From sequence record PQ613263: 64,000 bases of DNA; one strand, 5' to 3'. Positions 250-62,973 of this stretch are shown here, one piece after another (position 1 is the stretch's first letter; each line of letters opens with the position of its first letter). This DNA comes from Shigella phage Moonfish. A program made the translations under genes and the position numbers. The notes under the pieces are model-generated. The model was not told where the DNA came from. It searched no databases and saw only the letters and a list, made by a program, of their open reading frames with translations.

Positions 250-1470
250 ATGACTACGGAAGCTGCAACCACAGCTTCCGACATTCTCGCAATGTCGGAT
301 GATGAGATTCTGAATATGGAAGCCCCAGCAGTTATTGCTGAGGAAGATACTTCCACTCAGAACAACCCAGAAACCAACGGCGTACAGACTCCTGCTGAAG
401 AAGTTGACACCCCTGCTGTTGAAGACCAACCAACCGAAGAAACCTCCCCTGAAACTGAGCCAAACGAAGAAGATGCAGCAAATGCTTTAACTTCTGATAA
501 AGTTGATGATAAAGTTGTCGACACAGAAGTTGATAGTAACGGTAAGCCGATTACTAAAGCTGAACCTTCTACTGCTGAACCAGGCCAGGAACAGAAAGAA
601 GAAGGCAAACAGTCTGAAGGTCTGCCTGCTGACTTCAACTATAAGGAAGGTTATGAGAAGTTGATGGCTCCTTTTAAAGCTAACGGCAAAATGATTACTC
701 CCCGTTCACCGGAGGAGGCCATTAGCCTGATGCAGATGGGTGCTAACTATACTCGCAAGATGCAAGAACTTCAGCCGTACCGTAAGGTAATGCTGATGTT
801 ACAGAACAACGGTTTAATGGATGAGGATAAACTTTCTTACCTGATTGACCTGGATAAGAAGAATCCTGAAGCTATTAAAAAGTTGCTGAAAGACTCTGGT
901 ACAGATCCTCTGGAATTTAATCCAGATGAAGAAATTAACTACCAGGGTGGCAATCACCGTGTTACCGACACCGAAGCAGATTTTGCAACCGAAATTGACG
1001 ACTTAAAGTCTACTCAAGAAGGACAAGCTACATTAGGTGTTATCGGCTCGACGTGGGATGCTGCCAGTAAAGATGCTCTTTATCAGAATCGTGGTTTACT
1101 TCAGACTATTCACGAACAACGTGAGAATGGTATTTATGACACCATTGCTAACGAAGTGAATCGTCTTCAGATGTTAGGCCAGATTCCGGTTGGTACTCCG
1201 TTCATTCAGGCGTATAACCACGTTGGTAATCTCCTTGCACAACAGGGAGCATTTAACCAAGTGGCTAAGCCAGAACCAGTACAAGCAGTTAAGCCAGTGG
1301 TTCAGCCGGTAGTGCGTGTAGCACAACCCAAGCAGACCCTGACTAACAATGAGCAAGCTAAAGCAGCTTCCCCTAGTCGGGCTGCTACACGTAAAGCAAC
1401 ACCTATTGTAAACCCACTCGCTATGAGTGATGAAGATTTCGCTAAACTCCCAGTACCGGGTAGTCTTTAA
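250..1470 (+). CDS. virion-module protein with acidic low-complexity N-terminal third (scaffold-like?)
   Basis: 406-aa ORF with RBS-like GGAG upstream; N-terminus rich in E/D/T/P; sits immediately upstream of the major capsid gene. Confidence 0.6.
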   Translation: MTTEAATTASDILAMSDDEILNMEAPAVIAEEDTSTQNNPETNGVQTPAEEVDTPAVEDQPTEETSPETEPNEEDAANALTSDKVDDKVVDTEVDSNGKPITKAEPSTAEPGQEQKEEGKQSEGLPADFNYKEGYEKLMAPFKANGKMITPRSPEEAISLMQMGANYTRKMQELQPYRKVMLMLQNNGLMDEDKLSYLIDLDKKNPEAIKKLLKDSGTDPLEFNPDEEINYQGGNHRVTDTEADFATEIDDLKSTQEGQATLGVIGSTWDAASKDALYQNRGLLQTIHEQRENGIYDTIANEVNRLQMLGQIPVGTPFIQAYNHVGNLLAQQGAFNQVAKPEPVQAVKPVVQPVVRVAQPKQTLTNNEQAKAASPSRAATRKATPIVNPLAMSDEDFAKLPVPGSL

Positions 1471-3468: not shown

Positions 3469-4311
3469 ATGATTATGTCTTGTTCTGCTGAGGTAGAAGC
3501 TAACCGACTCCTAGAAGAGTTAACTAAGGGTGATGACTTTACCCTTCCCGATATTGATATGTCCGGTCCTGAATGGGATATCCCAGGTGGGGATGATTCT
3601 CCAATCTTTGGTGCTATTACCAAAGTAACCAATGAATCACTTACTACCCGCGAAGTAGGTGGTAGTGGTACGTTTGATGCATTAATGGAATCTGCACACA
3701 ATCACCTTAAAGCTGAGTTTAAAGCTAATCGTATTACCGGTGGTGAGTATACCAAGGCATATATTGCTATGATGGAATCTTGCATGGGGAATGCTGTTCA
3801 GTTCTTACTTGGTCGTGACCAAGCATACTGGGCTGCTGCTATGGCACAGATTCAGGCAGTTACTGCTCGTGTTCAACTGGCAACCTCTAAAGCACAGTTT
3901 GTACTGGCTAAGATTCAGGCACTGTCCGCTAAGAGTGAATATGCTCTTACTAAGATGAAGATTGCTACTGAGTCTGAAACGTACTGTGCTGCATTGTTTA
4001 ATGCTAGTCAGATGTTACCTCAACAGCTTAAGCTGATTACAGAACAGACCGAAGCACAACGTGCACAGACTCTGGATACCCGTACTGATGGTACTGCCGT
4101 TAAAGGTTCTGTAGGTAAACAGAAAGAGTTGTACACCCAACAGATTACTTCTTACCAACGTGATGCAGAAGTTAAAGCATCTAAGCTGTTTACTGATGCA
4201 TGGATTACTCAGAAGACTATTGATGAAGGCTTGAATCCACCTAATGGTTTCACTAACGCAAGTATTGATACTATTCTGACCAAGCTGAAGTCTAACAACG
4301 GGCTGAACTAA
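3469..4311 (+). CDS. hypothetical virion protein (N4 gp54-like by synteny)
   Basis: 280-aa ORF with RBS; alpha-helical, Q/A-rich. Confidence 0.55.
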
Positions 4312-4312
4312 T

Positions 4313-6955
4313 ATGGGCTTATTCAGTGGGAAGACCAAAGTATACGTAGCATCCTCTGTCTATAACATGGCAGGGGATATACAGAAACGTCCAAACTATA
4401 TGAAGACTGTGGTCATTGGTAAGATTGTTGCTGATACAGGATTTACTATGGCAGACACTATCTCTGATAGTTATCTGAATGGACCGGGCATTCGTATGCG
4501 ACTGTTCTCCGGCTGGAGTAAGAACCACTATGACTCAGTAGTTGGTATGGCAGGTTCTTCATTAGGTGTACTAGCTAAGATTGACCCTACTGTTATAGAG
4601 GGACAAATTACCCCACCTGCTGGAGAATCTGTCTATGTTCAGGCAGCAGAGATTGGCTTTGCTGACTTTGAACAATGGTGTGACCAGTATCTTTATGAGA
4701 ATGCCCCTAGTCGAATCATGGAACGATTCGACGTAGACATTGATGAAGATACTAATGAGATTACTATGACCTCCTTAGATGGAGGTTCTACTATTACATT
4801 CACACCTACTAACTTTGAACCAGGTGCTTTGTATCTCTATGCTGATTACACATTCTATAAGTCCCCTTCTACCAATCCACCGGTAGTAGGGCCGACTACT
4901 GTCTACGATGATGAAGATGACCTACCTTCTACTTTGTTATGGACTACCGTTTCAAGTGATACTACAGCTAATACAACCAATCTTACTAAGACTATACAGA
5001 CCCATTCTGTTTACTCTGATGGCAGATCGGATGAAGATAGTACTGTTACTGAACCAAGTGTGGATAACTGGAACTCCTACGTTAAGGTTTATCGTAGAGG
5101 ATTCACTGAGAAACCCAATGATGTAACTGTAGTTGTATCTGACAGGGTAATGACCCATACAAAGTTTGGTGAGATTCAAACCAGTACTGCTGTAACTACC
5201 AATGTTGTTGATTTAGGTGGGGGTGTTACCCGTACTGACACAATCACTACAACTACAGAGACACTGGTTCGTAAGTATTCATCCCAGACTACTCGTACTG
5301 ATACTGAGATGACTGCTGTTGGTACACCTAAGCTGCTTATCTACAAGCAGAACTCCGGTAATGTTGCTCTGGATTCACTGTTTGAAACCGAGGCTACTGA
5401 TAACCGATTCTACCCATTCATCCCAATCAGGAATGATAAACAGTGGGTAGAAAATGACCCAATCTACCCGTACTGCAAGAAGGCTCTTTATAAAGCTACT
5501 GGTGGTAAACTCAATACAGTAATGACTGAGCTTAAGAAGAATGAGGACATAGGTGATATTCAATACATTTATGGCTCATTCGGTGTGTCTCTTAATACCC
5601 CAGAGGATACTGCTAAGGAATACATCTATCGTTTCTTTCAGATGGCTACTGAAGCATTCCCACCTGACCCAACCTACCCTACATTGGAAGCAGTGATTGC
5701 AGGTTATCAGGCAGCAAATGATGCAGTTGATGAATATGTAGCATGGTGGAACAGGCAGGAAGGTCAGATTGTTGGAACACCCCCTCCACTGCCAGAATAC
5801 CCAGTCATACCTAAACGAGAGTTTAGGGTACATAGTAATAAGCAGTACAAGTACGACATGACCATTGGCTGGAACTATGTATCTGAAACTACTCATTCAG
5901 GTGAAGCATGGTCTGGTGCTAAGCAGGGACAACTTCGAGCCAGATATGCAGGAGATATAACTCTTACTCGCAAGAACATACGTACAGGTGCTAACAACAA
6001 ACTGGAAGTTACTACTACGTTTTACTCTATGCAGGAGTACGAGTTACTTTGGCAGGATGGTAATGACACTTACCGTAAACTTAGAGTACTGGGTCTAAAT
6101 CACAATAACAGGGTATACAAAAATAAATCAGTAAGTATTGACGTTGCCGAAGCAATGGGTGATGCAGAAGAGAGTGGTTTCATTATTCCACTGCACACTA
6201 ACATCTACCGTTCAATGTCACTGGTTCGTAGTACCCAATTGTCTACTGCTTGCTCTTACTTAGTGATGAACTCATATAAGAAGGTTAAGCAGAAATGGTA
6301 TACATCATCTGCATTTAAGATTGTGGTTGTTGTAGTTGCTGTTGTTGTATCCGTATTCACTATGGGTGCTGGTGGTGCAGGTATTCTTGGGGCATATGGT
6401 GCAGTTGGTGCATCACTTGGTTTTGTTGGATTAGCTGCTGTAATAGTGGGTGCTGTAGCAAACGCTATTGCTGCAATGATTCTGGTATCCATCATCACTA
6501 AAGTATCCACTTCACTGTTTGGTGATAAGCTGGGCTTTATTGTTGCAGCTATTGCTTCAATGGTGGCTATGAACGTTGGTACTGCTATGTCTACTGGAAC
6601 ATCCTTATCCACCTTAGCTGGTGAGATGATGAATGCCCAAAACATCATGCAGCTTACTAGTTCAGTAGGTAATGGTATTAGTCAGTATATTAATGCATCC
6701 ACGGCTGCTACTATTCAGAAAGCAGAGAGTGTAATGCAGCAGTACAATACTGATATGATGGCAATCAATAAGCAGTATGAAGAGATGTTTGGTACTGCTG
6801 GACAGGGTGTAATTGACCCTATGCAATTTGTGTCAATGGAGTCGTTGGATTCTTTCTTATCACGTACTCTTATGACTGGTTCAGATATAGCTGACATGTC
6901 TTTAAACATGGTTGGAAGCTACTCTGATATGACTCTTAATACAGACCTTGTTTAA
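4313..6955 (+). CDS. large internal virion protein with C-terminal Gly/Ala-rich transmembrane segments (ejection/channel protein candidate)
   Basis: 880-aa ORF; residues ~660-760 are a long hydrophobic G/A/V-rich stretch (VVVVVAVVVSVFTMGAGGAGILGAYGAVGASLGFVGLAAVIVGAVANAIAAMILV...). Confidence 0.7.
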   Translation: MGLFSGKTKVYVASSVYNMAGDIQKRPNYMKTVVIGKIVADTGFTMADTISDSYLNGPGIRMRLFSGWSKNHYDSVVGMAGSSLGVLAKIDPTVIEGQITPPAGESVYVQAAEIGFADFEQWCDQYLYENAPSRIMERFDVDIDEDTNEITMTSLDGGSTITFTPTNFEPGALYLYADYTFYKSPSTNPPVVGPTTVYDDEDDLPSTLLWTTVSSDTTANTTNLTKTIQTHSVYSDGRSDEDSTVTEPSVDNWNSYVKVYRRGFTEKPNDVTVVVSDRVMTHTKFGEIQTSTAVTTNVVDLGGGVTRTDTITTTTETLVRKYSSQTTRTDTEMTAVGTPKLLIYKQNSGNVALDSLFETEATDNRFYPFIPIRNDKQWVENDPIYPYCKKALYKATGGKLNTVMTELKKNEDIGDIQYIYGSFGVSLNTPEDTAKEYIYRFFQMATEAFPPDPTYPTLEAVIAGYQAANDAVDEYVAWWNRQEGQIVGTPPPLPEYPVIPKREFRVHSNKQYKYDMTIGWNYVSETTHSGEAWSGAKQGQLRARYAGDITLTRKNIRTGANNKLEVTTTFYSMQEYELLWQDGNDTYRKLRVLGLNHNNRVYKNKSVSIDVAEAMGDAEESGFIIPLHTNIYRSMSLVRSTQLSTACSYLVMNSYKKVKQKWYTSSAFKIVVVVVAVVVSVFTMGAGGAGILGAYGAVGASLGFVGLAAVIVGAVANAIAAMILVSIITKVSTSLFGDKLGFIVAAIASMVAMNVGTAMSTGTSLSTLAGEMMNAQNIMQLTSSVGNGISQYINASTAATIQKAESVMQQYNTDMMAINKQYEEMFGTAGQGVIDPMQFVSMESLDSFLSRTLMTGSDIADMSLNMVGSYSDMTLNTDLV

Positions 6956-7412
6956 CAGGAGAATCCTCATGGATTTGTCATTCTTAACAGGCAACCAAAC
7001 CCCACAGCCAGCGGCTATGTCTTGGATGTCTAATAACAACCAGAACTTTAATACCCCAGCTATGAACTATAACCCAGGTGCTGCCATTGGTATGGGTGCA
7101 GATACAGGAGTAACCTCACCTACTTCTTTCTTGTCTGGTTCAGCTAATCAGTTGGGCATGAACGTACCTACCTTCCAACTAGGACTGGGTGCACTTGGTT
7201 CATTAGCTAATATCTATGGTGGTTTCCAGGCTAATAAGTTAGCCAAAGACCAGTTGAACTTTACTAAGAGTGTTACTAACACTAACCTGAATAACCAGAT
7301 TAAGTCTTATAACACTGCATTAGAAGACCGTGCTCGTAGTCGTGCTACAGCAGAGAACCGTGACCAGTCTTCAGCCGATGCTTACATTGCAGCTAATAAA
7401 CTAACTCGTTAA
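6948..7412 (+). CDS. small virion protein (N4 gp52-like by synteny)
   Basis: 154-aa ORF overlapping upstream stop; N/G/S-rich. Confidence 0.5.
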   Translation: MFNRRILMDLSFLTGNQTPQPAAMSWMSNNNQNFNTPAMNYNPGAAIGMGADTGVTSPTSFLSGSANQLGMNVPTFQLGLGALGSLANIYGGFQANKLAKDQLNFTKSVTNTNLNNQIKSYNTALEDRARSRATAENRDQSSADAYIAANKLTR

Positions 7413-7424
7413 TAGGAAACCATC

Positions 7425-9380
7425 ATGGCTCAAATTACATGGCGAAATGTTGACGCACCTAACTTCTCTGGAGTTGGTGACAGCATTCGCACATTTGGCA
7501 GCATGATTGGTAACGCTACCTCCGGCTTAAGTGATGCACTGGGTAATTTCCAGAACGCTGCTAAGCAGGAGGCTGGCAATGCCGTCATGATGAATGCTAT
7601 GCAATACCAAGACCCTACTGAGTATCGTAATGCTTTGGCATCTGGTGCACTGTTTCAGGGGGTTGACCCTTCTCTGGTAAACCAACGTACTCTCCAGAAT
7701 CTGGATGAGCGAGCAGGTACATTACTGGCTCAGCAAGGTCAACAGGGAACCAACGACTACAATGCTTATCGTTTTGGTCGTTTACAAGATACCAATACTG
7801 CATTGGATAATGCTTCCCCTGCTGTACGTTTACTGTCTGAGGCTTACCAGTCTGGGGACCAGAACCGTATTAATGCTGCACTGAGTCAGACTCGTGATGC
7901 ACTGTCTGCACTACCTGCCGACCAGCAACTTGAGATGATGAGTCGTCTACAGGGACAAGGTGGTCAGGCTATTAATCAAGCACAGAACCGTTTTGATTTG
8001 GGTGTGGCTCAACGTAATGATGCTGATAGTCAGGCAGCACAGGGTGTTATGGCCCAGATTACTCGTGGTGCAGAAAACCCCAATGATGCTCGTCTGTTGG
8101 CAGAAGCATATAGCAAGAATCTGTCTCCGGTTGCACAGGCACTTTTGCAGGGATTACTGGCTAATGCTTACCCAGGTGTATATGGTAATGGTGTAGGTGC
8201 TGCTTCTGCTCCGGGTACTGCTGGTACTCGTCAGGGTTCTCCTTATGATGTTACTTACCAGTTTGCTGGTACATCTACTCCTATTACTCAAATGAGTATT
8301 GGTGATGTAATTAAACACCAGGATGGTATGAAGTCTAACCAGGGTGCTTCACCTGTTGGGGCATTCCAGATTAACCAAGCTACCCTAAAAGACTTTGCTC
8401 CCAAAGTACTTGGTTCAGATTGGCAGAGCCAGCCACTTTCTCCTGAGAACCAGGATAAGATTGGTAAGGCTATCTTCGAACAGCGTAAGAATGGCAACCT
8501 TAAAGATACTTGGGCTGCACTTCCTAATGCTGGTGTCGGTGCTTATAAGGACATGTCATGGGAAGAGATTAAGCCAATCATTGCACAGGCTGAGGTTGGT
8601 GCTAATCCATTAGCTATGCGACAGACTGCACAAGGTAACCAAGCCGTATCTACTCTGGCTCAGGGTATGATTGGTACTCGTTCTATGCAGGACAATACCG
8701 GTAGCCTTAACACTGACTTCCTCGGTACTGTTACCGACAATACTCCAGTAGGTGAGATTGCTAACCGTTTGTTGGAAGGCGACTTTAAGGGTGCTGACCG
8801 AAACTGGGTACTTAACCGACTGACCGATATTTCTCAACGTGGGAATATGTCACCAGCTATGGCTGCTGCTGTTATGCAACGTTCACAGACTGGTGTTCCA
8901 GAAGGTTACATTAGTCGTGCTATTGATGCAGTTAACCCATTTATTACCAATGAAGCTGGTAATGGTATGCGTCTTAATGACCGTCAGGTAGACCAGCTAA
9001 TTGAGGGTGTACGTCGAGGTGAACCACTGGAAGGTAGTGTACGTAATCTTGGGCGTGCACAGGCAGCACAGAACATTCAGGCAGCACAGACTGCTTATGA
9101 TGCTGCTGTAGCTGCACTGACAAATACTCAGAACAAGATTAACACCGGACAAACTGGTCTTACTGCATTGTTACCTGCTCGACGGGAAGCTGTTACCAGA
9201 GCTGCTGCAATGCTCCAAGCTGCACAAGGGCAAGTTCAAGCAGACCCAGCTAACCTGGCTCCAAGAGGTTTCCAGTCACAGTCTAGTGTGGACCGGGCAC
9301 GAGCCAAGGAAGATGAAGAACGTGCTGCACGGTACTTACGTCAGGCGCAAGGTTTACCTGAGTATATGCAACCTCGCTAA
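7425..9380 (+). CDS. virion protein (N4 gp51-like by synteny), Q/A/N-rich; possible glycosidase-like central segment
   Basis: 651-aa ORF directly upstream of vRNAP; central segment GASPVGAFQINQATL weakly resembles transglycosylase motifs (unverified). Confidence 0.6.
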   Translation: MAQITWRNVDAPNFSGVGDSIRTFGSMIGNATSGLSDALGNFQNAAKQEAGNAVMMNAMQYQDPTEYRNALASGALFQGVDPSLVNQRTLQNLDERAGTLLAQQGQQGTNDYNAYRFGRLQDTNTALDNASPAVRLLSEAYQSGDQNRINAALSQTRDALSALPADQQLEMMSRLQGQGGQAINQAQNRFDLGVAQRNDADSQAAQGVMAQITRGAENPNDARLLAEAYSKNLSPVAQALLQGLLANAYPGVYGNGVGAASAPGTAGTRQGSPYDVTYQFAGTSTPITQMSIGDVIKHQDGMKSNQGASPVGAFQINQATLKDFAPKVLGSDWQSQPLSPENQDKIGKAIFEQRKNGNLKDTWAALPNAGVGAYKDMSWEEIKPIIAQAEVGANPLAMRQTAQGNQAVSTLAQGMIGTRSMQDNTGSLNTDFLGTVTDNTPVGEIANRLLEGDFKGADRNWVLNRLTDISQRGNMSPAMAAAVMQRSQTGVPEGYISRAIDAVNPFITNEAGNGMRLNDRQVDQLIEGVRRGEPLEGSVRNLGRAQAAQNIQAAQTAYDAAVAALTNTQNKINTGQTGLTALLPARREAVTRAAAMLQAAQGQVQADPANLAPRGFQSQSSVDRARAKEDEERAARYLRQAQGLPEYMQPR

Positions 9381-9465: not shown

Positions 9466-12400
9466 TTGAACAGGAAACATGCTATGTCAACATTTGACCG
9501 TCTGGCAGGTTTCGCAGACAGCATCACTAATGCCAAGCAAGTCGATGTCTCTACTGCAACCTCTCAGAAGCAAGCTGCACAAGGGCAAAGCCCTTTCCAA
9601 TTAACCCCAGAGAATGCTTACAATCTCCAGACTGGACGTGTAGGTAATCTTGGAACTGGTGCATTCGAACCAGGTTCACTTCAGGCTGACTTCACTCAAG
9701 CCTCCCCATTAGAAATCATTAATAAGTACGGTAATGAGAAAGGTTTACAGATTCTTAATAGCCGAGCTAATGCTGCTGATGTTGTACGTCAGGACTTATC
9801 TAAACAGCGTACTAACGCAGAAGCATTTGGCGATACTCTTTCTGGTGTTGGTCTTGGTGTTGCTAATACCCTTGGGGGCATTGCTGCTCTTGGCACAGGT
9901 CTGGTCAATGATAATGCCGGGGCATCCATTGCTTCCGGGATGGATTGGCTGAATGAAGGTGTACGCAATCTCCAGTCTGATGCACTGAATGCTACCCGTA
10001 AAGTTGTTCAGAATCAGAACCAGATTTCTGCTCAAAAGAACCAGAAACTTTACGAGCAAGATATTAAGAATGGGGAGAACGATTTGGTTGCCTCCCTGTC
10101 TCGCATTGGTCGTGACGCTTTTGATTCTGTTGCTAATACACTTGATAATGGTATGGCTGCTACCGATGGACTGAGCGAAGGTGTTGGTTCCCTCTTTACT
10201 GCTGGTCCACTTATCCGTGGTGTGTCTGCATTAGGTAAAGTAATGGTTGGTGGTGATAAAGCTGTTAGGGGTATTACCTTAGCTGCTGAGTTGGGTTCAC
10301 GTCCTGCACAGGTTGCACTGTCTGCTGGTCGCGTTGCTGCACCTGCTATTGCAATCGGTGGCATGGAAGCAGGTGGTGCATACCAACAGACTGCATCTGA
10401 AATCATGAAGATGTCCCACCAAGAATTGGCAAGTAAGTCTCCTGTTTACCAACAACATATTGCTGATGGTTTACCTCCTGATGAAGCACGTCGTCAGACT
10501 GCATCTGAAACAGGTATCACTGCTGCTGGCTTAACTGCTCCAGTTGCTGCTGCTACTGGTCCACTGGTATCTCGCTTTGAACTTAACCCACTTAGAGTAG
10601 GTTCACTGGCTGGTGCTGGTTCTAATATGTTACGTGAGACTGTAGAAGAAGGTATTCAATCCGGCTTTGGTCAGTTCGCACAGAATACTGCAATCAAGGA
10701 AAATGTTGATGCATCCCGTGACACCCTCAAAGGGGTCGGTGAGCAAGCAGGGCTTGGTGCACTCTACGGCTTCGGTAGTGCTGGAGTTGCTCAAGCTCCT
10801 GGTGCAACTGTTAAAGCTGCTGGTGCTGCCACTGCTCCTGTTGTACGTACTACCCTGGCTGGTGCTTCTCTGGTTGGTAATGCATTAGCTAAAGCTGCTT
10901 CCCCTATTACTAACATTCTGGTTCAACGTGGTGAAGAAGTTGCTAAGCGTAATGAACAAGCATCCCCTGTAGCTGATGCTACGGTTAATGCTGCTGCACA
11001 AGAAGCTACTGCTCAGGCAGAACAAGCACAAGCGACTGTACAGGAAGCAGTAGATGCAATGGATATCTCTCCTGAGGAGAAGGCTGCTGCTACTCAGTAT
11101 GCTGCTGACTTAACTCAGGCAATGAACTTTGACCCTGTAGAATTGGAACAAGCTAACCCGGTAATTCGTGAAGCTGTTTCTGGTTCCACTAACCGTGTTG
11201 AAGCTATTCAGAAGATGGCTGACTTGGTTAATACAGCAGAAGACCCTAACGTTCAAATGGAAGCTGCTATCCAGATGTATGACAACATCATGTCTATGGA
11301 TAGCTTCATTAACCGTGACCCAGGTGCACTGGCTAATCTGGAACAGGGTTCACCTGCTGCTACAATCGTAGACCAGTTCTCTGGTCTGATGGCTAACGTA
11401 CAGAATACACCGAAGGTACTTCGTGCATTCCGTGCTATCCATTCCATGATTCAGGAACAGGCTGAAGCAGGTAAGCTGAAAGCTACTGAAGAAGCTAACC
11501 AAGCTCAAGCAAACAACATTGCCATGGCTGCTGACGTGTCTCCAGAAGTATTGGATGCAGATTCAGTGAACATGGTTCTGAAACATGCAAGTGAAGGTAA
11601 GATTACACTGGGGAATCGTCAACGTGCTGCCCTGCAATCTGCTGCTGCCTTGTTACAGGGTGCACGAGAGTTTGACGCTAAAGCAGAAGAACTAGGCTTA
11701 CGTCCTCAAGACATTGTTAGTAAACAAATTAAAACCGACGAGTCTCGTTCTAACGAAGGACAGTACTCTGCGTTGCAACATGCGAAACGCATTCGTTCTG
11801 CGTATAACTCTGGTAACTTCGATTTGGCTTACGCTTATCTGAGCGACTTTATGAAGTTCGCCCAGCACATGCAGAATAAGGTCGGAGCGTTGAATGAGCA
11901 TCTGATTTCTGGGAATGCGGATAAGAATAAGTCTGTTCATTATCAGGCTCTCTCGCCTTCCCGTGAATGGGTACGTAGTCGTACTGGCCTCGGTGTCAAT
12001 CCTTACGATACCAAGTCTGTTAAGTTTGCCCAGCAAGTAGGACTGGAGGCCAAAACCGTAGCTGATATTGCTAACGCACTTGCTACGGCTTACCCGGAGC
12101 TTAATGTTTCTCATGTGAAAGTTACCTCGTTGGATTCACGTCTGAACAAGCCAGCTGCCCAGGTAGTTAAAGAGTTCCGTCAAGGTGGTCTTGATGCCAC
12201 TCAGTCTCAACAGACCAATGAACCAGTGAATCAGGTTGATGAATCTCCTGCACCAGTGCAAGAGGACACTACTACTGTACAGCCTAAAGCTAAACCTGTG
12301 GTAGAAAATAAGACTGCTCCTACTAAGGAGACTAGCCCAAAAACAGAAGAAGTCTCTACTACCAAGTCTGAAACAGTAGAAGCTACCCTCACTAATGAGG

Positions 12401-15400
12401 ATACCATCCAGGAAGTAGCTGAAACCAAAACAGAAATGGAAACAGTGTTCCCCGTCTATAACAATGAAAAGACACCGAACCAGTTCCTGAAAGCATTTAC
12501 CCTACCAGAAGAACCTAAGTCTCGTACCATTGGTTCTGAGTCTCCGTTGACTGATGTTAAGCAAGCACTGTCTTCTGTTGCTCGCTTTGAAGCATTCACT
12601 CAAAAAGAAAATAACGCTCTCACAGGTGATGTGATTAAGCGTTATCAGGACTTAATGGACTTTGGTGAAACTCTGAAGACTACTTTGTCTGAACGACTGG
12701 CTAAGTTCCTTGCTAACAAAAATGTCGGTAAACGTTTTGCAGAAGGTACGGAAGCTAACCGTTGGGTAGGTGGCAAACTACTGAATATCGTTGAACAAGA
12801 TGGTGACACCTTTAAGTTCAATGACCAGTTGTTAGAGACTGCTGTGCTTGCTGGTCTGCAATGGCGACTAACTGCTACACAGAATGCTGCTGTTAAAGAC
12901 ATGAAAGACGTAGCTGCTATTACGGGTGTAGAAGCATCTCTGTTACCAGAAGGTATTCTGGCTGAGTTCGAGAATGCTCAGACTCTGGTTGAAGCTACTA
13001 ACTCACTGGCTCAGAAGATCGAATCCTACTGGGGTTTGAACCGTAACCCTAATGCACCACTGGGTTATACCAAGGGTATCCCAATGGCAATGGCTACAGA
13101 GATTCTGTCTTCCCTCATTGAGATGGGTGAAGTTAAAGAGTCTATGCTGGATGTGTCTGAGATTGACCCAGATTCCAATAAGACTGTCGGCCTGTATACC
13201 ATTGAGAAGCTGGATGACAATGATGCCATTAACAAATTCCCTACTGCTATTGAGGAAGCTGTCCTCTTAGAACCAGAAGAGAAAATGTATTTCGGTGACG
13301 ACATTCCTTCCGTGGCTCAAACTCAATTACGTAATCCTGCTGTTAAGAATACCCCGGAACAGAAAGCTGCTCTGAAAGTAGAACAGGCTACTGAGTTCCG
13401 TGTACACATGCCGATGGTTAACTTCTATGAAGCTATGGGCCGTGACAACATACTGGAATTGATGGGTGCTGGTTCTCTTAATCCTGAACTGTTGAACGTG
13501 AACACTGCTAAGTCACTGGAGGGTAAAAACCTGTCCGTGTCCATGGCATATGATTCCTTGTTTGGTGTAATCAATCAGATTAAGGAACAGGAGAATGGAC
13601 TAGATACACCTATCCACTATGGCTACAACATGACCCGTGTAGGTCGTATGCAGATGCTTGGTAAGAACAACCCACAGTCCAGCAAACTGGTACGTGAAGC
13701 AATCCTGCCAACCTTCTCTACTATTGACTTGAGTAATGAAAACAGCCAAACGTTCTCTGACTTCCAGTTAGGTCTGGCTCAGGCATTGGGTATCAAGGTT
13801 CATAATATGTCCCGTGAAGCTATGTCTGAAAAGCTGACCAAAGCTTTGGAAGGTAATCTGAAACCTGCTGTTGATATGATGGTTGAGTTTGATAAGTCTG
13901 GTCACTTACCTGCTGATGCAGTTGATATTCTGAAGACATCTCTGGGTGGCGATAAATCATTCGTAGCTCTCATGGCTCTTATGGAATATGCCCGTTACCT
14001 GAACAGTGATGACCGTGCCAACTTTAATACCCCTCTGTACGTTGAAGCCGATGGTGTAACCAACGGTCCGATTAACGCAATGGTATTAATGACTGGTGGT
14101 AAGTTCACTCCAGACTGGATTAAGAATACTGCTAAAGGTGGTTTGTTCTTCGGTAAAGCTGGTAAGACTATGAACGAACATCGTTCACAGGATGACAGTG
14201 TTGACTTGTATGAAGCATCCACCAATGGTCTGCAACAAGCATTGGGTGAATTGCGTAGTACTTACCGTAACAACGTTCCTGTTATGAGCCAGATGAACCA
14301 TCTCCAGAAGTTAATGGACCTGTTCATCAAAGACTTTAACTTGAATGAAGACGGTACTTTGGACCTGAAACGTGGTATCGCTAAAAACCCACTGACTATT
14401 ACCATCTATGGTTCTGGTGCACGTGGTATTGCTGGCAAGATGGTTAGTGCAATTACTGACACCATCTATGAACGCTTCAGTGACGTTCTGCAAGCACGTG
14501 CTGCTGACCCTAGCATTTCCCCAGCTATGGCGATGTTTGGTAAGGAGGCTGCGTCTGAGGCTGATGCTCAGGCTATGCTGGATACTTTCCTTACTTCTAT
14601 GGAAGCACTGACTGGTAATGTTCCAGTTATGCGTAAAGGCGAACTGTCTATTCAACAGGCAGAAGGTGCTCTGACTGGTAAGTTAGACCCTCAGAAGTTT
14701 ACTGTATCTGGTAATGCCTTGAAGAACCTACAAGAGAACATGCTTCACTTGTTCGTTGAACCAATGCGTACAGGTATCCGTAATACTGTTGGTGAAGGTC
14801 TGATGCACTCTACTGAGAACTTGCAGAAGGCTACTCAGATTCAGTCTCTGGTATTGCAGGATATGTTCCAACAAGCAGTACAGGCTAAACTGGCAGAAAA
14901 AGAAAATGACCCAACGTGGAAGAAGGGTGATTTCTTAACACAGAAAGAACTGAATGAAATTCAGGAATCATTATCTCCACTGGCTCCAATGATTGAGACT
15001 GGCGCACAGACTTTCTACATTGCTGGCAGTGAGAATACTGATGTTGCTAACCAAGTACTGGCTACCAACTTAGATGACCGTATGCGTGTGCCAATGAGCA
15101 TCTATGCCCCGTCACAAGCAGGTGTTGCTGGTATTCCATTTATGACCATCGGTACTGGTGATGGCATGATGATGCAGACCCTTTCTACTATGAAAGGTGC
15201 TCCGAAGAATACCCTGAAAATCTTTGATGGCATGAACATTGGTATCAATGACATCACTGATGCAAGCCGTAAAGCTAATGAGGCTGTATACACTTCCTGG
15301 CAGGGTAACCCTATCAAGAATGTTTATGACTCCTTCGCTAAGTTCATGAAGAATGTAGACTTCAGTAAACTGTCTGATGAAACCAAACAGGCTATCGCTA

Positions 15401-18400
15401 AGTCTGCTCTGGAATACGACCAGCGTGAAGGTGCTACTGATGACCTGTTACGTGTTGGTGCTGAACAGATTGAACGTAATCTGCGTAACATTGCTCTGGG
15501 TGTAGATATTCGCCATAAAGTAATGAACCAGGTACAGACTACTGTTGACCAGATGGCTGCTGTAGGTGCTCCTTATGTGAACAACGGTAAAATTTCTCTG
15601 GAAGGTCTGACTGTAGACCAGCAAGTAGCTAAGCTGAACGAACTGTTTGATGCTGAATTAATCAAGCGTCGTGATGCAGTACGTGCTGCTAAAGCAGAAC
15701 CAGTGAAAGAAGTACCGGCGATGGAGCAGGTTGGTCGTGTGCTGAAGTCTGGTGTACGTCTGCTGTCTAACACTGCTATTACTAAGCTGGCTAAAGAGAT
15801 GTCTCCTGAACAGCAAGCAGTATTGAAAGAAGTACAGAACTCCCTTGCTGCTAAAGACTACAAGGTTGTTTATGGTACTCCTGCTCAACTGGATGCTTAC
15901 GCTATTGAGAAGAACATTACTCGCCCAGCACCGGAAGATATTGAAGCTGCTGAAGCTGGTAATGCATACGGCTGGACTAACTTTGATGATAAGACCATCT
16001 ACTTAGTTACTCCTTCCTTAGAGACTCTGGTTCATGAATTGGTACATGCTTCTACTTTCGAATCTGTACTGGCTCACTATGAAGGTACTCCTAATGAAGC
16101 AGTCCAGAATATTGAAGACCTGATGAACCAGTTCCGTGCTCTGGATGTTAAGGATGAATCTCCGGCAGTACGTGAAGCATATGCTGATGCTCTCAATACC
16201 ATTAATGGTCACTTGTCTAATGGCTTTATTGAGCCAGCAATGGCTAAAGCTGCTGCACTTAATGAGTACATGGCATGGGGTTTAACCAACCGTGAACTGA
16301 TTGGTAAGCAGAAGAAAACCACTGCACTTAAGGCCATGGTTCAGTCTGTATATGAAGCAATTAAACGTCTGGTATTTGGGCGTAAGAAAGCTCCTGCTAA
16401 TGCAGATGATATGTTCTCTGGCTTACTGTTTAACTCCTCCGTAGTTATGCGTGGGCAAGCTCCTACTGCTGCTGTGGCTAAGGACACTACCTTGTTCCAT
16501 AGCAAAGCATATGGAGATAACACTCGTCTGGAAGAGTTAGGACAGACCTTCGATAAGCTGATTACTAACTACATTGGTTCAGAACCAGTACAGCAAGTAA
16601 TCCGTAAAGGTAAATTCTCTGATGCAGTAGTGAATGCAACAAAAGTAACTCGTGATGTTCAGGCTCATGGTTTCACTATGAATATGCAGGAACAGCGTCT
16701 CTTTACTAACATTGTTGCTGCACTGGCTACTGAAGCTGCTATTAGCCCAGCTGCTCTGGCTCGTGCACAGGAATACTATGCACACGTTACTAAGAACCTG
16801 ACCGTTGAAGCATTCATGGCTGACCCGGAAAGTACTAACCCTGCTGACCGTTACTACGCACAGCAGAAGTTCGATACCATCATGGGTGCTAACAATATTG
16901 AGTTTGATGCACAGGGTCGTTCTTCCTTACTGCCTACCTTCGTGGCTCTGGCAATGGTAAGTGAAGATGTACGTAACGTACTGGCTGGCATTCCTGTTAT
17001 GAAAGCAGATAAGCAATCTGGTAATACTGTTGATGCAATGCTGACTAACATTGGTACTGCTGCAATGGCTAGCCTGAATGCTCGTGTAGCAGGAGACACT
17101 AAAGCTACCAACGTGCAAGAAGGTATGGATGCACTGGCTCAGACAATCATGCAGACTAGCCTCAATGCACAGTCTTTCTACGATTCCGTTGCTACTCCTA
17201 GTGGTAATGCTATTGACCGTGCTAACCAGTATCTGGTGGACTCTATTGATGTACTGTCTACTCGTGCTTTAGATGGTGCACGTAATGTTGCAGCTAATAC
17301 CAAGAACCCATTGGTTAAAGGTGCTGCTCATGCTGCACAACTGGTAGCTGCTATTGCTACGGAGAAGAATGGTGCAATCGTAGCCGAAGGTGTTATGGCT
17401 GCAATGAACCAGGGTAAGGTATGGCAACCCTTCCATGACTTAGTTAATGACTTAACTGGTCGTACTAAGAGCAATGCTTCTGTATACGATTTAATTAAAG
17501 CAGTACGTGCACAGGTACAAGCTGACCGTCAGCAATTCCGTGAACATCTGCCTACCACTATCGCATCTAAGTTCAGCCGTAAGCTGACTAATGATGAGTG
17601 GAAAGCAATGCATACCGGCATGGGTAAAACTGATTTAGCTGTACTGCGTGACACTATGTCACTGGCTGAAATCCGTGACCTGTTGTCTGACCAGAAGATT
17701 GTTGACCGTGAAGTGAACAAGCTGGAAGCAGATTTGCAGAAACAAGCTGGGCGTAACTGGCCACTGATTAACCGTAAATCTAAGCAACTGGCTCAGTACA
17801 TGATTAACGGCACAGTTGGTAATAATCTGCTGCGTAATGCTACTGCAATCTCTCGTATGCTGGGCGAACGTCAGTCTGCACGTTCTACTGTAGATGTAGC
17901 TCAACTGGATAAACTTATTACCCTGTATGCACTGGAAGCAATGAGCAAAGCTGACCGTGAGCTGTTATCTTCCCTGGCTCAATCAGAAGTTGATGGAATG
18001 GATTTTGCTACTTCTTATCTGGTTGGACAGCGTAAAGATGAAATGGCTAAAGCTAAAACTGATAGCCGTGCAACATTGAACCAGTATAAAGGGCATATCC
18101 CTAGCGAGACTAAGCAGGGTGTTAACCTGATTGTTGCTGAAGATAGCCAGTTTGCTGATTTGATTGAGAAATCCTATGTACGTCTGGGTACTTATCAGGG
18201 TAGTTCTGCTAACCGTGGGCCAGCACGTAGCTACTACTTCGCACCAGTACAGGCACAGGCTCCATTCTCACAGGGCATCTTACAGAACGTTCGTAATACT
18301 GCTGGTGGTGTAGATCTTGGTACAGGCTTTACGATGGGTTCTATGGTAGCAGGTCGTATCACAGACAAGCCTTCAGTAGACCGTATCACTAAAGCTCTGG

Positions 18401-19836
18401 CCCGTGGTGAACGCGGTAATGAACCACTGCTGCCTGTATACGATGACAAAGGTAATGTAGTTGCATATGAGCAGTCTATAGACCCTAACATGCTGAAGCA
18501 CATTGAGGGTGAGAACCATCTTGCACGTGCAATCGGTGTATGGCGTGGTCGTCAGGTGGAAGAAGCTAAGGCTCAGCGTTTTAATGACATGCTGATAGAG
18601 AACCTGCATAGCATGTATGAGAACGACATTAAGATGTCTGCCTCCAATAAGTCCCAGTACGTGAACCTTCTTGGTTCTAAACTGGACCCAGTAACTGCTG
18701 ATGCTCTTAAGCTGATGAACAGTGAGACACGTCAGAAAGCAGAAAGCCTGTTTGGTAATGGTGAACTGTGGGTACGTCGTGACATGCTTAATGATGCTCT
18801 TGGTTATCGTGCAGCTTCTGTAGGTGATGCCTGGTCTGGTAATTCTCGTTGGTCCCCAGAAACGCTGGATACCTTCAAGAAAGCTATGTTAGGTGTGTTC
18901 GGCAATCGTGCTTATAAGTACACAATGGGAGGTGAGAACCTGGTACAGAACTTAGTTAAAGAAGCTAAGACCCTGATTGTAATTAAGTCAGTAGTCGTAC
19001 CTGCTGTTAACTTCTTGGCTAACCTTTACCAGATGGTTGCTCGTGGTGTACCAGTTAAGAACATTGCTAAGAGCATTCCACAGAAAACTGCTGAGATTAA
19101 CCAGTACCTGAAATCTCGTCTGCGTCAGGTAGATGCAGAAGCAGAATTACGTGCAGCTACCAACCCGAACCAGATTCGTAAGCTTAAGGCTGAGATTCAA
19201 TCCATCTCTGATAGCCATAAGCGTATGAGTATCTGGCCTCTGCTGGAAGCTGGTGAGTTCTCTTCAATTGCAGATGCTGGTATTGGGCGTGATGACATCC
19301 TGATTACCGAAGGTAAACTTCAGGAATATATGGATAAACTGGCTGATAAGTTGCCTAAGTCTGTACGTACTGCTGGGCGGTATGCACTCATCACTAAGGA
19401 TACTGCTCTTTTCCAGGGTATCCAGAAAACCGTTGAGTACTCTGACTTTATCGCTAAAGCAATCATCTATGATGAATTGACTCAGCGTAAAGGCAAGACT
19501 CGTGAAGAAGCACTTGGACGTGTAACTGAAGAGTTTGTTAACTATGACCGTCTGCCTGGTCGCTTCCGTGGATATATGGAAAGCGTTGGTTTAATGTGGT
19601 TCTACAACTTTAAGATTCGTTCTGCAAAAGTTGCAGTATCCATGATTCGTAATAACCCAGTACATGCAGCAATGGCTATGTTGGCTCCAGCTCCTACCAT
19701 GTTTGGTAACGTTGGTCTGCCTATTCAGGACAACGTATTTAGTATTGCTGCTAAGGGTGGGCTGGATTCTTCTTGGGGCTTTGGTCAGGGGCTGCGTGCT
19801 CACAACCTGAACCCTTGGTTGAACCTGGTAAACTAA
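9466..19836 (+). CDS. virion-encapsidated giant RNA polymerase (vRNAP, N4 gp50-like)
   Basis: Single uninterrupted 3456-aa ORF (10.4 kb) at the end of the virion gene module; a protein of this size in this position is the hallmark of N4-like phages. All antisense ORFs inside it are short. Confidence 0.9.
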   Translation: MNRKHAMSTFDRLAGFADSITNAKQVDVSTATSQKQAAQGQSPFQLTPENAYNLQTGRVGNLGTGAFEPGSLQADFTQASPLEIINKYGNEKGLQILNSRANAADVVRQDLSKQRTNAEAFGDTLSGVGLGVANTLGGIAALGTGLVNDNAGASIASGMDWLNEGVRNLQSDALNATRKVVQNQNQISAQKNQKLYEQDIKNGENDLVASLSRIGRDAFDSVANTLDNGMAATDGLSEGVGSLFTAGPLIRGVSALGKVMVGGDKAVRGITLAAELGSRPAQVALSAGRVAAPAIAIGGMEAGGAYQQTASEIMKMSHQELASKSPVYQQHIADGLPPDEARRQTASETGITAAGLTAPVAAATGPLVSRFELNPLRVGSLAGAGSNMLRETVEEGIQSGFGQFAQNTAIKENVDASRDTLKGVGEQAGLGALYGFGSAGVAQAPGATVKAAGAATAPVVRTTLAGASLVGNALAKAASPITNILVQRGEEVAKRNEQASPVADATVNAAAQEATAQAEQAQATVQEAVDAMDISPEEKAAATQYAADLTQAMNFDPVELEQANPVIREAVSGSTNRVEAIQKMADLVNTAEDPNVQMEAAIQMYDNIMSMDSFINRDPGALANLEQGSPAATIVDQFSGLMANVQNTPKVLRAFRAIHSMIQEQAEAGKLKATEEANQAQANNIAMAADVSPEVLDADSVNMVLKHASEGKITLGNRQRAALQSAAALLQGAREFDAKAEELGLRPQDIVSKQIKTDESRSNEGQYSALQHAKRIRSAYNSGNFDLAYAYLSDFMKFAQHMQNKVGALNEHLISGNADKNKSVHYQALSPSREWVRSRTGLGVNPYDTKSVKFAQQVGLEAKTVADIANALATAYPELNVSHVKVTSLDSRLNKPAAQVVKEFRQGGLDATQSQQTNEPVNQVDESPAPVQEDTTTVQPKAKPVVENKTAPTKETSPKTEEVSTTKSETVEATLTNEDTIQEVAETKTEMETVFPVYNNEKTPNQFLKAFTLPEEPKSRTIGSESPLTDVKQALSSVARFEAFTQKENNALTGDVIKRYQDLMDFGETLKTTLSERLAKFLANKNVGKRFAEGTEANRWVGGKLLNIVEQDGDTFKFNDQLLETAVLAGLQWRLTATQNAAVKDMKDVAAITGVEASLLPEGILAEFENAQTLVEATNSLAQKIESYWGLNRNPNAPLGYTKGIPMAMATEILSSLIEMGEVKESMLDVSEIDPDSNKTVGLYTIEKLDDNDAINKFPTAIEEAVLLEPEEKMYFGDDIPSVAQTQLRNPAVKNTPEQKAALKVEQATEFRVHMPMVNFYEAMGRDNILELMGAGSLNPELLNVNTAKSLEGKNLSVSMAYDSLFGVINQIKEQENGLDTPIHYGYNMTRVGRMQMLGKNNPQSSKLVREAILPTFSTIDLSNENSQTFSDFQLGLAQALGIKVHNMSREAMSEKLTKALEGNLKPAVDMMVEFDKSGHLPADAVDILKTSLGGDKSFVALMALMEYARYLNSDDRANFNTPLYVEADGVTNGPINAMVLMTGGKFTPDWIKNTAKGGLFFGKAGKTMNEHRSQDDSVDLYEASTNGLQQALGELRSTYRNNVPVMSQMNHLQKLMDLFIKDFNLNEDGTLDLKRGIAKNPLTITIYGSGARGIAGKMVSAITDTIYERFSDVLQARAADPSISPAMAMFGKEAASEADAQAMLDTFLTSMEALTGNVPVMRKGELSIQQAEGALTGKLDPQKFTVSGNALKNLQENMLHLFVEPMRTGIRNTVGEGLMHSTENLQKATQIQSLVLQDMFQQAVQAKLAEKENDPTWKKGDFLTQKELNEIQESLSPLAPMIETGAQTFYIAGSENTDVANQVLATNLDDRMRVPMSIYAPSQAGVAGIPFMTIGTGDGMMMQTLSTMKGAPKNTLKIFDGMNIGINDITDASRKANEAVYTSWQGNPIKNVYDSFAKFMKNVDFSKLSDETKQAIAKSALEYDQREGATDDLLRVGAEQIERNLRNIALGVDIRHKVMNQVQTTVDQMAAVGAPYVNNGKISLEGLTVDQQVAKLNELFDAELIKRRDAVRAAKAEPVKEVPAMEQVGRVLKSGVRLLSNTAITKLAKEMSPEQQAVLKEVQNSLAAKDYKVVYGTPAQLDAYAIEKNITRPAPEDIEAAEAGNAYGWTNFDDKTIYLVTPSLETLVHELVHASTFESVLAHYEGTPNEAVQNIEDLMNQFRALDVKDESPAVREAYADALNTINGHLSNGFIEPAMAKAAALNEYMAWGLTNRELIGKQKKTTALKAMVQSVYEAIKRLVFGRKKAPANADDMFSGLLFNSSVVMRGQAPTAAVAKDTTLFHSKAYGDNTRLEELGQTFDKLITNYIGSEPVQQVIRKGKFSDAVVNATKVTRDVQAHGFTMNMQEQRLFTNIVAALATEAAISPAALARAQEYYAHVTKNLTVEAFMADPESTNPADRYYAQQKFDTIMGANNIEFDAQGRSSLLPTFVALAMVSEDVRNVLAGIPVMKADKQSGNTVDAMLTNIGTAAMASLNARVAGDTKATNVQEGMDALAQTIMQTSLNAQSFYDSVATPSGNAIDRANQYLVDSIDVLSTRALDGARNVAANTKNPLVKGAAHAAQLVAAIATEKNGAIVAEGVMAAMNQGKVWQPFHDLVNDLTGRTKSNASVYDLIKAVRAQVQADRQQFREHLPTTIASKFSRKLTNDEWKAMHTGMGKTDLAVLRDTMSLAEIRDLLSDQKIVDREVNKLEADLQKQAGRNWPLINRKSKQLAQYMINGTVGNNLLRNATAISRMLGERQSARSTVDVAQLDKLITLYALEAMSKADRELLSSLAQSEVDGMDFATSYLVGQRKDEMAKAKTDSRATLNQYKGHIPSETKQGVNLIVAEDSQFADLIEKSYVRLGTYQGSSANRGPARSYYFAPVQAQAPFSQGILQNVRNTAGGVDLGTGFTMGSMVAGRITDKPSVDRITKALARGERGNEPLLPVYDDKGNVVAYEQSIDPNMLKHIEGENHLARAIGVWRGRQVEEAKAQRFNDMLIENLHSMYENDIKMSASNKSQYVNLLGSKLDPVTADALKLMNSETRQKAESLFGNGELWVRRDMLNDALGYRAASVGDAWSGNSRWSPETLDTFKKAMLGVFGNRAYKYTMGGENLVQNLVKEAKTLIVIKSVVVPAVNFLANLYQMVARGVPVKNIAKSIPQKTAEINQYLKSRLRQVDAEAELRAATNPNQIRKLKAEIQSISDSHKRMSIWPLLEAGEFSSIADAGIGRDDILITEGKLQEYMDKLADKLPKSVRTAGRYALITKDTALFQGIQKTVEYSDFIAKAIIYDELTQRKGKTREEALGRVTEEFVNYDRLPGRFRGYMESVGLMWFYNFKIRSAKVAVSMIRNNPVHAAMAMLAPAPTMFGNVGLPIQDNVFSIAAKGGLDSSWGFGQGLRAHNLNPWLNLVN

Positions 19837-62913: not shown

Positions 62914-62973
62914 TAACTCATCCCCCTTTCTCACAATTGAAAAGGGGCTTCCTAGAAAAACAATGAGGTTTAT

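Follow-up and report, generated by a model that had tools for sequence, protein, structure and literature searches.

A gp53-like gene of Shigella phage Moonfish probably encodes the tail plug of an N4-type virion

The window analysed here is the whole stretch of 64,000 nucleotides from Shigella phage Moonfish (PQ613263), and the reading frame of 880 codons that the original prediction had delimited in it is intact from its ATG to its stop codon (Table 1). This ATG lies 1 nt past the stop of the upstream tail tube gene, and the N4 gene order gp54 (tail tube), gp53, gp52, gp51 and gp50 (virion RNA polymerase, vRNAP) is conserved, as confirmed gene by gene. N4 gp54 gave a tblastn match of 68% identity from position 3475. 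For the gp52-like product, the alignment with 9YF4 begins at residue 8 of a TTG-started reading frame, and an AGGAG precedes the ATG. The vRNAP reading frame likewise opens at a TTG (9466), and its ATG start matches the phi G17 annotation after coordinate offset.

Table 1. Genes around the gp53-like gene and segments of its product (window coordinates)
Feature	Position	Strand	Basis or remarks
Tail tube protein, N4 gp54 / Moo19 gp71 ortholog	3475..4311	+	9D80_C, E 3e-149; 9LC0/9YFT Gp54, E 2e-125
Putative tail plug gene (gp53-like)	4313..6955	+	ATG at 4313, stop included (ends at 6955), 880 aa
Residues 1-28	4313..4396	+	MGLFSxKxKxYVASSVYNMAGDxxxRPNY; invariant M1, V12, S14, G21, R26; predicted beta-strand 8-18
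Residues 29-56, N-terminal helices	4397..4480	+	Predicted helices 29-40, 46-55; 64% identity to N4, same numbering
Residues ~183-340, beta-feather insertion, four long antiparallel strands	4859..5332	+	AF2
Residues 655-669, Lys/aromatic junction before the hydrophobic stretch	6275..6319	+	Y..vK.kWYq.g.fk
Residues 670-716, Gly/Ala/Val-rich hydrophobic segment, N4 knot equivalent	6320..6460	+	Hydropathy, N4 alignment
Residues 725-880, C-terminal tail	6485..6952	+	Third hydrophobic helix 740-760, long predicted helix 775-825
Residues 831-880, C-terminal motif	6803..6952	+	E..D.Fl.RTLMTGsDIA..S..M...F...TL.L
gp52-like ejection protein	6969..7412	+	PDB 9YF4 '16.5 kDa protein', E 2e-45; tblastn from 6969
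gp51-like ejection protein	7425..9380	+	PDB 11MN '66 kDa protein', E 2e-126; 49% identity to N4 gp51
Giant virion RNA polymerase, gp50-like	9484..19836	+	ORF, 3450 aa from ATG

Dozens of Gamaleyavirus records carry the gene as "hypothetical protein", and its 880-aa product matched no family of Pfam or NCBIfam. A phmmer search of the PDB aligned residues 1-879 with residues 1-883 of N4 Gp53 (9YFT chain FA, E=0); the second match was the DEV 'N4 gp53-like protein' (9ZE4_M), with the hydrophobic C-terminal region aligned (E 1e-14), and PHROG 2220 was matched at E=0 (residues 1-879 versus 1-847 of 850). The N4 and Moonfish proteins (885 and 880 aa) share the same neighbourhood, the knot segments described below, a beta-feather and a conserved C-terminal tail; their identity is 55% overall, rises to 70-77% over residues 661-773 (70% over 661-730) and falls to 39-45% in the beta-feather and outer core, the most diverged parts. 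Numbering is identical from 609 to 812, and both segments that form the knot in N4 align unshifted, with ~70% identity for residues 670-716. The split gp53 genes of Bp4 (379 + 441 aa) and pSb-1 (653 + 246 aa) were considered as evidence for a separate hydrophobic polypeptide and rejected: since they break at different positions, the splits most probably arose as artefacts of frameshifting or annotation.

In N4, gp53 has been described as a monomer that plugs the tail (PDB 9YFT; Bellis et al., Nat Commun 2026, PMC13434306), present singly in a symmetry mismatch of 12:6:1 and detected by both LC-MS and cryo-EM (PMC13434306). Its folded core of ~660 residues lies outside the tube, and residues 29-56 and 670-716 make up the "hydrophobic knot", the cork of the 12-mer tail tube, which sits in the tube base and not in a membrane (PMC13434306). 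The model ends at residue 724; the last ~160 residues have no resolved density in the tail lumen, where they and an unassigned 'double ring' density may touch gp52 (PMC13434306). Plug density persists on emptied particles, which the authors explain by the knot rebinding the tube, and the channel through the envelope is ascribed to gp52, gp51 and the N-terminus of gp50 (PMC13434306). N4 gp52 is the outer-membrane pore former and gp51 the periplasmic tunnel; the two show pore activity in lipid bilayers and an architecture like that of T7 gp14/gp15. The N4 plug itself is clamped by domains D9-D10 of the sheath protein gp65, together with gp64. Gp74 of DEV is also a tail plug (PMC12892993), and gp70 of Shigella phage Moo19, 'similar to N4 gp53' and 69% identical to the Moonfish protein, was detected by virion mass spectrometry (PMC11654681). 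That the Moonfish product is a virion protein, as first predicted, is supported by its homology to these N4 and Moo19 proteins.

The AlphaFold2 (AF2) model of the Moonfish protein is confident over residues ~6-660 (pLDDT mostly 75-93), and this core has the fold common to the solved plugs. The feather strands (211-234, 241-269, 272-302 and 305-334) are modelled at pLDDT 80-92; the stretch that bears them (~183-340) is deleted in homologs of ~740 aa, in agreement with the feather-less DEV gp74 (PMC13434306). From residue 684 to 880 pLDDT falls below 50, so that the knot and the C-terminal tail are left without a confident model. The consecutive hydrophobic helices of the original prediction do appear in this model as helices and not as beta structure, but at that low confidence. 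We rejected a relationship of the beta-feather to beta-pore-forming toxins, given that the Foldseek matches to aerolysin, Mpp75 and epsilon-toxin had probabilities of at most 0.16 and TM-scores below 0.1 and were taken for a generic likeness of long beta-sheets. Matches to maturation proteins of ssRNA phages in BFVD were not significant either (probability 0.1-0.44).

The Gly/Ala/Val-rich hydrophobic tail of about 100 residues holds up in both hydropathy and composition. Residues ~661-760 are the sole strongly hydrophobic and nearly charge-free part of the protein, with G+A+V at ~50%; over residues 669-773, V, A and G make up 18%, 18% and 14%, as against 7.5%, 6.1% and 6.6% in the rest, and two runs of 60 (670-729) and 31 residues (740-770) are free of D, E, K and R. 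Kyte-Doolittle windows of 19 residues reach 1.6 or more only inside residues 661-760, with a maximum of 2.59 as compared to 1.04 for the gp52-like and 0.78 for the gp51-like product, the orthologs of the pore formers in the same window; 47 such windows occur in the protein versus at most 8 in any other product of at least 100 aa in the 64-kb window. By a simple Hessa-scale sum, windows within ~670-690 and ~704-729 have an apparent dG of ~0, borderline TM-like on this measure, and the third segment is weaker; the best window outside residues 640-775 scores +8.4. Sequence of this kind does not equate with membrane residence; in N4 its first part is seen as a soluble-state knot in the tube. The proposed GxxxG packing motifs did not survive comparison with shuffles of the same residues, which gave 1.9 strict GxxxG expected for 2 seen, and small-xxx-small spacings exceed expectation marginally (22 versus 16.7, p ~0.03). 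Evidence for packing comes rather from small or polar residues that are nearly invariant, namely G690, G693, G699, G703, G706, A709, G713, N717, G737, G741 and G762, of which the invariant N717 stands just beyond the knot-equivalent range.

Chance composition does not account for this feature: each of the 55 homologs aligned, the least similar at 29% identity, keeps 42-81 uncharged hydrophobic residues in a row in its C-terminal quarter. Conservation in the family is highest in the hydrophobic module (661-773) and around E843, F848 and R851 in the C-terminal motif; in the motif these three residues are invariant and T852 and G856 near-invariant, as are Y655, K659, W662 and Y663 in the Lys/aromatic junction. 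Residues 831-880 are 44% identical in distant homologs (34% overall), and residues 1-28, at a mean identity of 66% in the 33 homologs that are less than 40% identical overall, form the most conserved segment. The C-terminal module of 221 aa is represented by 759 clusters and stands at the C-terminus in every full-length protein among the best 150 matches. A cork model alone leaves the strong conservation of TM-like hydrophobicity, of the 740-760 segment and of the C-terminal motif unexplained.

The homology, synteny, conservation and core fold described above are those of the Moonfish protein itself, and we propose, with a probability of about 0.85, that this protein is the N4 gp53-family tail plug of an N4-like coliphage (Schitoviridae, Gamaleyavirus-type) and seals the tail tube until receptor binding. 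Its location, stoichiometry, knot and gating would follow those of the N4 and DEV plugs. Residues ~57-660, the folded core with its beta-feather, would be kept outside the tube, and the charge-free segment 670-716 would fold back on the helices 29-56 to give a compact hydrophobic knot wedged in the tube opening, so as to retain the DNA together with gp52, the ejection protein in the lumen. The last ~160 residues, with the third hydrophobic helix and the C-terminal motif, may extend up the lumen. Engagement of the receptor by the receptor-binding apparatus would then push the plug sideways, whereupon the gp52-, gp51- and gp50-like proteins would exit and build the trans-envelope conduit. For annotation the matter is settled, the "hypothetical protein" being nameable as tail plug protein (N4 gp53 family).

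The original prediction had the protein ejected from within the virion, with its hydrophobic helices spanning the host envelope as the channel for the genome and giant RNA polymerase. Three segments of putatively TM-grade hydrophobicity, the Lys/aromatic-rich flank ahead of the first and the adjoining ejection cassette speak for such a channel, as do an N4 preprint, according to which gp53 'is predicted to contain TMDs', and the label 'TMhelix containing protein' given to Vibrio-phage homologs. However, pore activity belongs to gp52 and gp51, whose orthologs are the next two genes in Moonfish, and one copy with about three helices could hardly line a channel of ~35 Å. Ejection is contradicted by the N4 homolog, a single-copy external plug that is still on emptied particles (PMC13434306). 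The channel idea is largely refuted for N4 gp53 and very improbable for Moonfish; what stands of it is that the protein would sit where genome and polymerase exit, but the N4 homolog closes that channel rather than forming it (PMC13434306). What Moonfish encodes thus appears to be no new membrane channel but a protein already described, and its TM-like stretch should not be read as such a channel.

A plug might also have two states, a cork in the virion whose metastable knot and lumenal tail, once displaced, unfold and insert into the outer membrane, where they would anchor the tail tip or prime the gp52 pore in the manner of the membrane-active ends of siphophage tape measures. The conservation of the hydrophobic module and C-terminal motif above the rest of the family is consistent with this, as are a hydrophobicity far greater than in the gp52- and gp51-like pore formers and the possible contact of the lumenal residues and 'double ring' with gp52 in N4; a released knot would, moreover, presumably face the outer-membrane surface directly. 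Yet the N4 plug was re-seated on empty particles in vitro, where the authors have the knot rebind the tube, and the conserved glycines and N717 are equally explained by tight intramolecular packing of the knot, so that we regard membrane insertion as unlikely. Hydrophobic segments of this kind are ones that SRP or YidC would presumably recognise, and they might instead act in the infected cell, in inner-membrane targeting for membrane-associated tail assembly or in lysis timing; in line with the latter, gp53 Q98R arose in a rapid-lysis line of N4. This we consider next to impossible: Q98R rebuilt in N4 failed to reproduce rapid lysis, for which reason a lysis role of gp53 was rejected, the structure of the N4 virion already accounts for the segment, and the N4 lysis cassette is a separate locus.

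The proteins that N4 and T7 use for DNA passage across the Gram-negative envelope (T7 gp14/gp15/gp16; N4 gp52/gp51 and the gp50 N-terminal domain) are likewise virion proteins from the same late operon. Those ejectosome proteins are multi-copy, elongated and helical, stored in capsid or tail and expelled, whereas the plug, a mostly beta-rich external protein in one copy, blocks a conduit instead of forming one; neither sequence nor fold similarity between the plug and known ejectosome subunits was found. Functional analogues are the tail needles of P22 (gp26) and Sf6 and the tail-tip plugs of siphophages, which shut the channel once the DNA is packaged and give way when the receptor is bound. 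The plug has been compared with both (PMC11445570 and PMC13434306). Tail needles, however, form trimeric coiled-coil fibres and insert by way of a knob, unlike the monomeric gp53-type plug with its hydrophobic helical knot in a 12-fold tube, and no structural match was found.

As to what holds the plug, N4 gp64 and gp65 gave no tblastn match at E 1e-3 or better in the window, ~3-8 kb of the genome lying outside it, so plug retention and release in Moonfish must use another protein. Plugs occur in 276 records and full-length gp65 homologs in only 36 phage records, and among the gp65 matches listed there is no Gamaleyavirus record. DEV gp74 (PDB 9ZE4 chain M; 740 aa, without beta-feather, and no more than 11-13% identical to the Moonfish protein in structural alignments) works without an N4-type sheath and is held by the receptor-binding fibre gp56-gp55-gp54. 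Since DEV, too, is without a gp65-type sheath, the gp65 clamp marks the N4 subtype and not the plug family. The published model is thus thin where part of the best-conserved region has no resolved density in the N4 map and where G7C/Moo19-type phages are without the sheath that clamps the N4 plug, and both points are relevant to the coupling between receptor binding and the escape of the 380-kDa polymerase. It is tempting to speculate that the knot is spring-loaded, its ~90-residue TM-like stretch and the C-terminal motif exiting first, entering the outer membrane, anchoring the tail tip there and nucleating the gp52 pore, and that the gp65-less Gamaleyavirus plug is gated by another partner, as a third architecture beside N4 and DEV; taken together the two proposals are unlikely. 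In Moo19, whose tail tube and tailspike N-terminus are close to their Moonfish counterparts, a weak 'plug' density without atomic model is seen at the tube tip (PMC11654681). The Moo19 tailspike is a single protein of 1086 aa, whereas in Moonfish the homologous part stands alone as an adaptor of 378 aa (61777-62913), with a further tailspike reading frame after it.

The product of the plug gene is an ortholog of the already characterised tail plug of coliphage N4, gp53, and thus an ordinary component. A sequence search covering all PDB chains returned a full-length match to "Gp53" of 9YFT (E=0, residues 1-879 vs 1-883) and a weaker one, mostly through the hydrophobic C-terminal part, to the "N4 gp53-like protein" of 9ZE4 (E 1e-14), from Pseudomonas phage DEV. 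Identity to gp53 as taken from the N4 genome amounts to 55% overall, 86% over residues 1-28, 70% over 661-730 and 77% over 731-773, and both proteins share residue numbering from 609 to 812. The neighbouring genes, each identified individually, follow exactly the gp54-gp53-gp52-gp51-gp50 order of N4 (see table), and the plug ORF opens one nucleotide past the tail-tube stop codon. By DNA similarity the window belongs with the N4-like coliphages of Gamaleyavirus, and the closest match for the plug gene is found in Escherichia phage phi G17 (96.4% nucleotide and 98.5% protein identity). Essentially all records label this gene "hypothetical protein", Pfam and NCBIfam hold no model for its product, and PHROGs family 2220, which takes it in, is of "unknown function"; putting the annotation right is a useful outcome.

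Features of the Moonfish window discussed in the text
Feature	Coordinates	Strand	Match or remark
N4 gp57 ortholog	250-1470	+	between gp58 homolog and major capsid gene
Tail tube protein	3475-4311		Moo19 9D80_C, E 3e-149; N4 Gp54, E 2e-125
Plug ORF	4313-6955	+	ATG start, 880 aa
ORF within plug gene	5576-5896	-	106 aa, hydrophobic product
ORF within plug gene	6256-6648	-	130 aa, hydrophobic product; opposite the Gly/Ala/Val-rich stretch
gp52	6969-7412		9YF4, E 2e-45
gp51	7425-9380		11MN, E 2e-126
Virion RNA polymerase	9484-19836		3450 aa
378-aa protein	61777-62913	+	equals N-terminal adaptor part of 1086-aa Moo19 tailspike, and 410-aa B2 gp49
ORF after 378-aa protein	~62971-64000	+	runs past window end; start resembles beta-helix or pectate-lyase-type tailspike

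In N4, a single gp53, composed of a globular core and a beta-feather, closes the 12-copy gp54 tail tube, and its "hydrophobic knot" (residues 29-56 and 670-716, six short helices) corks the base of the tube; the plug is clamped by domains D9-D10 of the sheath protein gp65 in a 12:6:1 "tail-gating complex", was also found by LC-MS, and is seen on full as well as on emptied particles (Bellis et al., Nat Commun 2026, PMC13434306). The DEV ortholog, gp74, likewise serves as the plug and is held by a gp56-gp55-gp54 fibre (PMC12892993). In Shigella phage Moo19, gp70 was detected in virions, and the tip of the tube shows weak unmodelled plug density (PMC11654681); gp70 is 69% identical to the Moonfish protein. 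We infer, with a probability of about 85%, that the latter is a single-copy tail plug working as its orthologs do: homology, synteny, core fold and conservation come from the Moonfish sequence, while position, copy number, knot and gating are carried over from N4 and DEV. The core and feather (~57-660) would lie outside the tail tube, and the charge-free residues 670-716 would join helices 29-56 in a knot sealing it. The remaining C-terminus, with a third hydrophobic helix (740-760) and a conserved terminal motif, would reside in the lumen beside gp52. Upon receptor binding the plug would be displaced, and the gp52-, gp51- and gp50-like proteins would build the channel.

The hydrophobic tail, which the original prediction had picked out as rich in Gly, Ala and Val, is real and sharply bounded. 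The Kyte-Doolittle average over 19 residues (KD19) reaches at least 1.6 only at residues 661-760, with a maximum of 2.59; two runs are free of charge (60 residues at 670-729 and 31 at 740-770), and Val, Ala and Gly make up 18%, 18% and 14% of residues 669-773, compared with 6-7.5% each elsewhere. Summed simply on the Hessa scale, the apparent insertion energy is ~0, borderline transmembrane-like, for windows within ~670-690 and ~704-729, the best window beyond 640-775 standing at +8.4. None of the window's other products of at least 100 aa is comparably hydrophobic. The "GxxxG-like" packing motifs fared less well: strict GxxxG is at the level of shuffled sequences (2 vs 1.9 expected), and a weak excess persists for small-xxx-small (22 vs 16.7, p ~0.03).

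Each of the 55 homologs in the alignment, the most distant at 29% identity, retains a hydrophobic run of 42-81 uncharged residues in its C-terminal quarter, and G690, G693, G699, G703, G706, A709, G713, N717, G737, G741 and G762 vary hardly or not at all; judging from this alignment, the hydrophobic feature is under selection. Among homologs 34% identical overall, the best-conserved parts are residues 1-28 (66%), the hydrophobic module (45%) and the last 50 residues (44%). As a unit, the last 221 residues turn up in 759 representative clusters, and form the C-terminus of each full-length protein among the best 150 hits. Residues 831-880 (6803-6952) carry the motif E..D.Fl.RTLMTGsDIA..S..M...F...TL.L, with E843, F848 and R851 invariant, in the part not resolved in the N4 map, which suggests that they bind a specific partner in the tail lumen.

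With the 55-sequence alignment as input, AlphaFold2 modelled residues ~6-660 confidently (pLDDT mostly 75-93), placing four antiparallel strands of great length at 211-334, and rendered residues 684-880 as helices with pLDDT below 50. Homologs of ~740 aa lack exactly residues ~183-340. For the long sheet of the beta-feather (~211-334), Foldseek gave weak matches below significance, to aerolysin-family pore-forming toxins (PDB, probability at most 0.16) and to ssRNA-phage maturation proteins (BFVD, at most 0.44).

The original prediction went further, to an ejected protein that would form the channel through the host envelope. Three of its points hold: by homology with Moo19 gp70 and N4 gp53 the protein belongs to the virion, it is tied to ejection, and its segment is predicted to be helical and of transmembrane-like grade. 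The N4 data, however, contradict the channel-forming role: there the plug blocks the conduit instead of forming it, exists in a single copy, lies mostly outside and is retained on emptied particles. Moreover, the roughly three hydrophobic helices of a single copy would not suffice to line a ~35 A channel. In N4, the outer-membrane complex is made by gp52 and the periplasmic tunnel by gp51, recombinant gp52 and gp51 each form pores in bilayers, and the N-terminal domain of gp50 takes part at the inner membrane (PMC13434306). We follow here the body text and figures of that paper; its abstract swaps the two roles (gp51 outer-membrane complex, gp52 periplasmic tunnel), opposite to the results, legends and model. 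Since the hydrophobicity of the plug is far above that of these actual pore formers (KD19 maxima of 1.04 and 0.78 for the gp52-like and gp51-like proteins), it is conceivable, if improbable, that the knot, once released, inserts transiently into a membrane.

Retention of the plug may differ from N4, where the sheath proteins gp64 and gp65 clamp it: tblastn over the whole window, with the relevant tail genes at 61076-64000, found no homolog of either, and N4 gp66 matches with no more than its first ~72 residues (61783-62010). Full-length gp65 homologs occur in 36 phage records, as compared with 276 for the plug. The two ORFs at the window's end suggest a tailspike split into two proteins, as in phage B2; this arrangement seems unlike that of the phi G17 record, in which small genes of the lysis region come next.

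The tape-measure label of the gp57 ortholog ('tail length tape measure protein' in PHROGs and in the phi G17 and N4 RefSeq records) is implausible for a gene of a short-tailed phage that is flanked by the gp58 homolog and the major capsid gene, and is likely a propagated misannotation. Residues 503-626 of the gp51-like protein match weakly an NlpC/P60 RipA peptidoglycan endopeptidase model (E 7e-4, 18.8 bits vs a 625-bit cutoff), probably a coiled-coil or low-complexity artefact; a muralytic remnant in a periplasmic tunnel protein would nevertheless be plausible. The minus-strand ORFs within the plug gene most likely arose by chance. Finally, the gp53 ortholog is entered as two ORFs in Escherichia phage Bp4 (KJ135004.2 19780-22433, 379+441 aa) and, with the break elsewhere, in the BFVD entries of Shigella phage pSb-1 (653+246 aa), probably frameshift errors and not true split genes.
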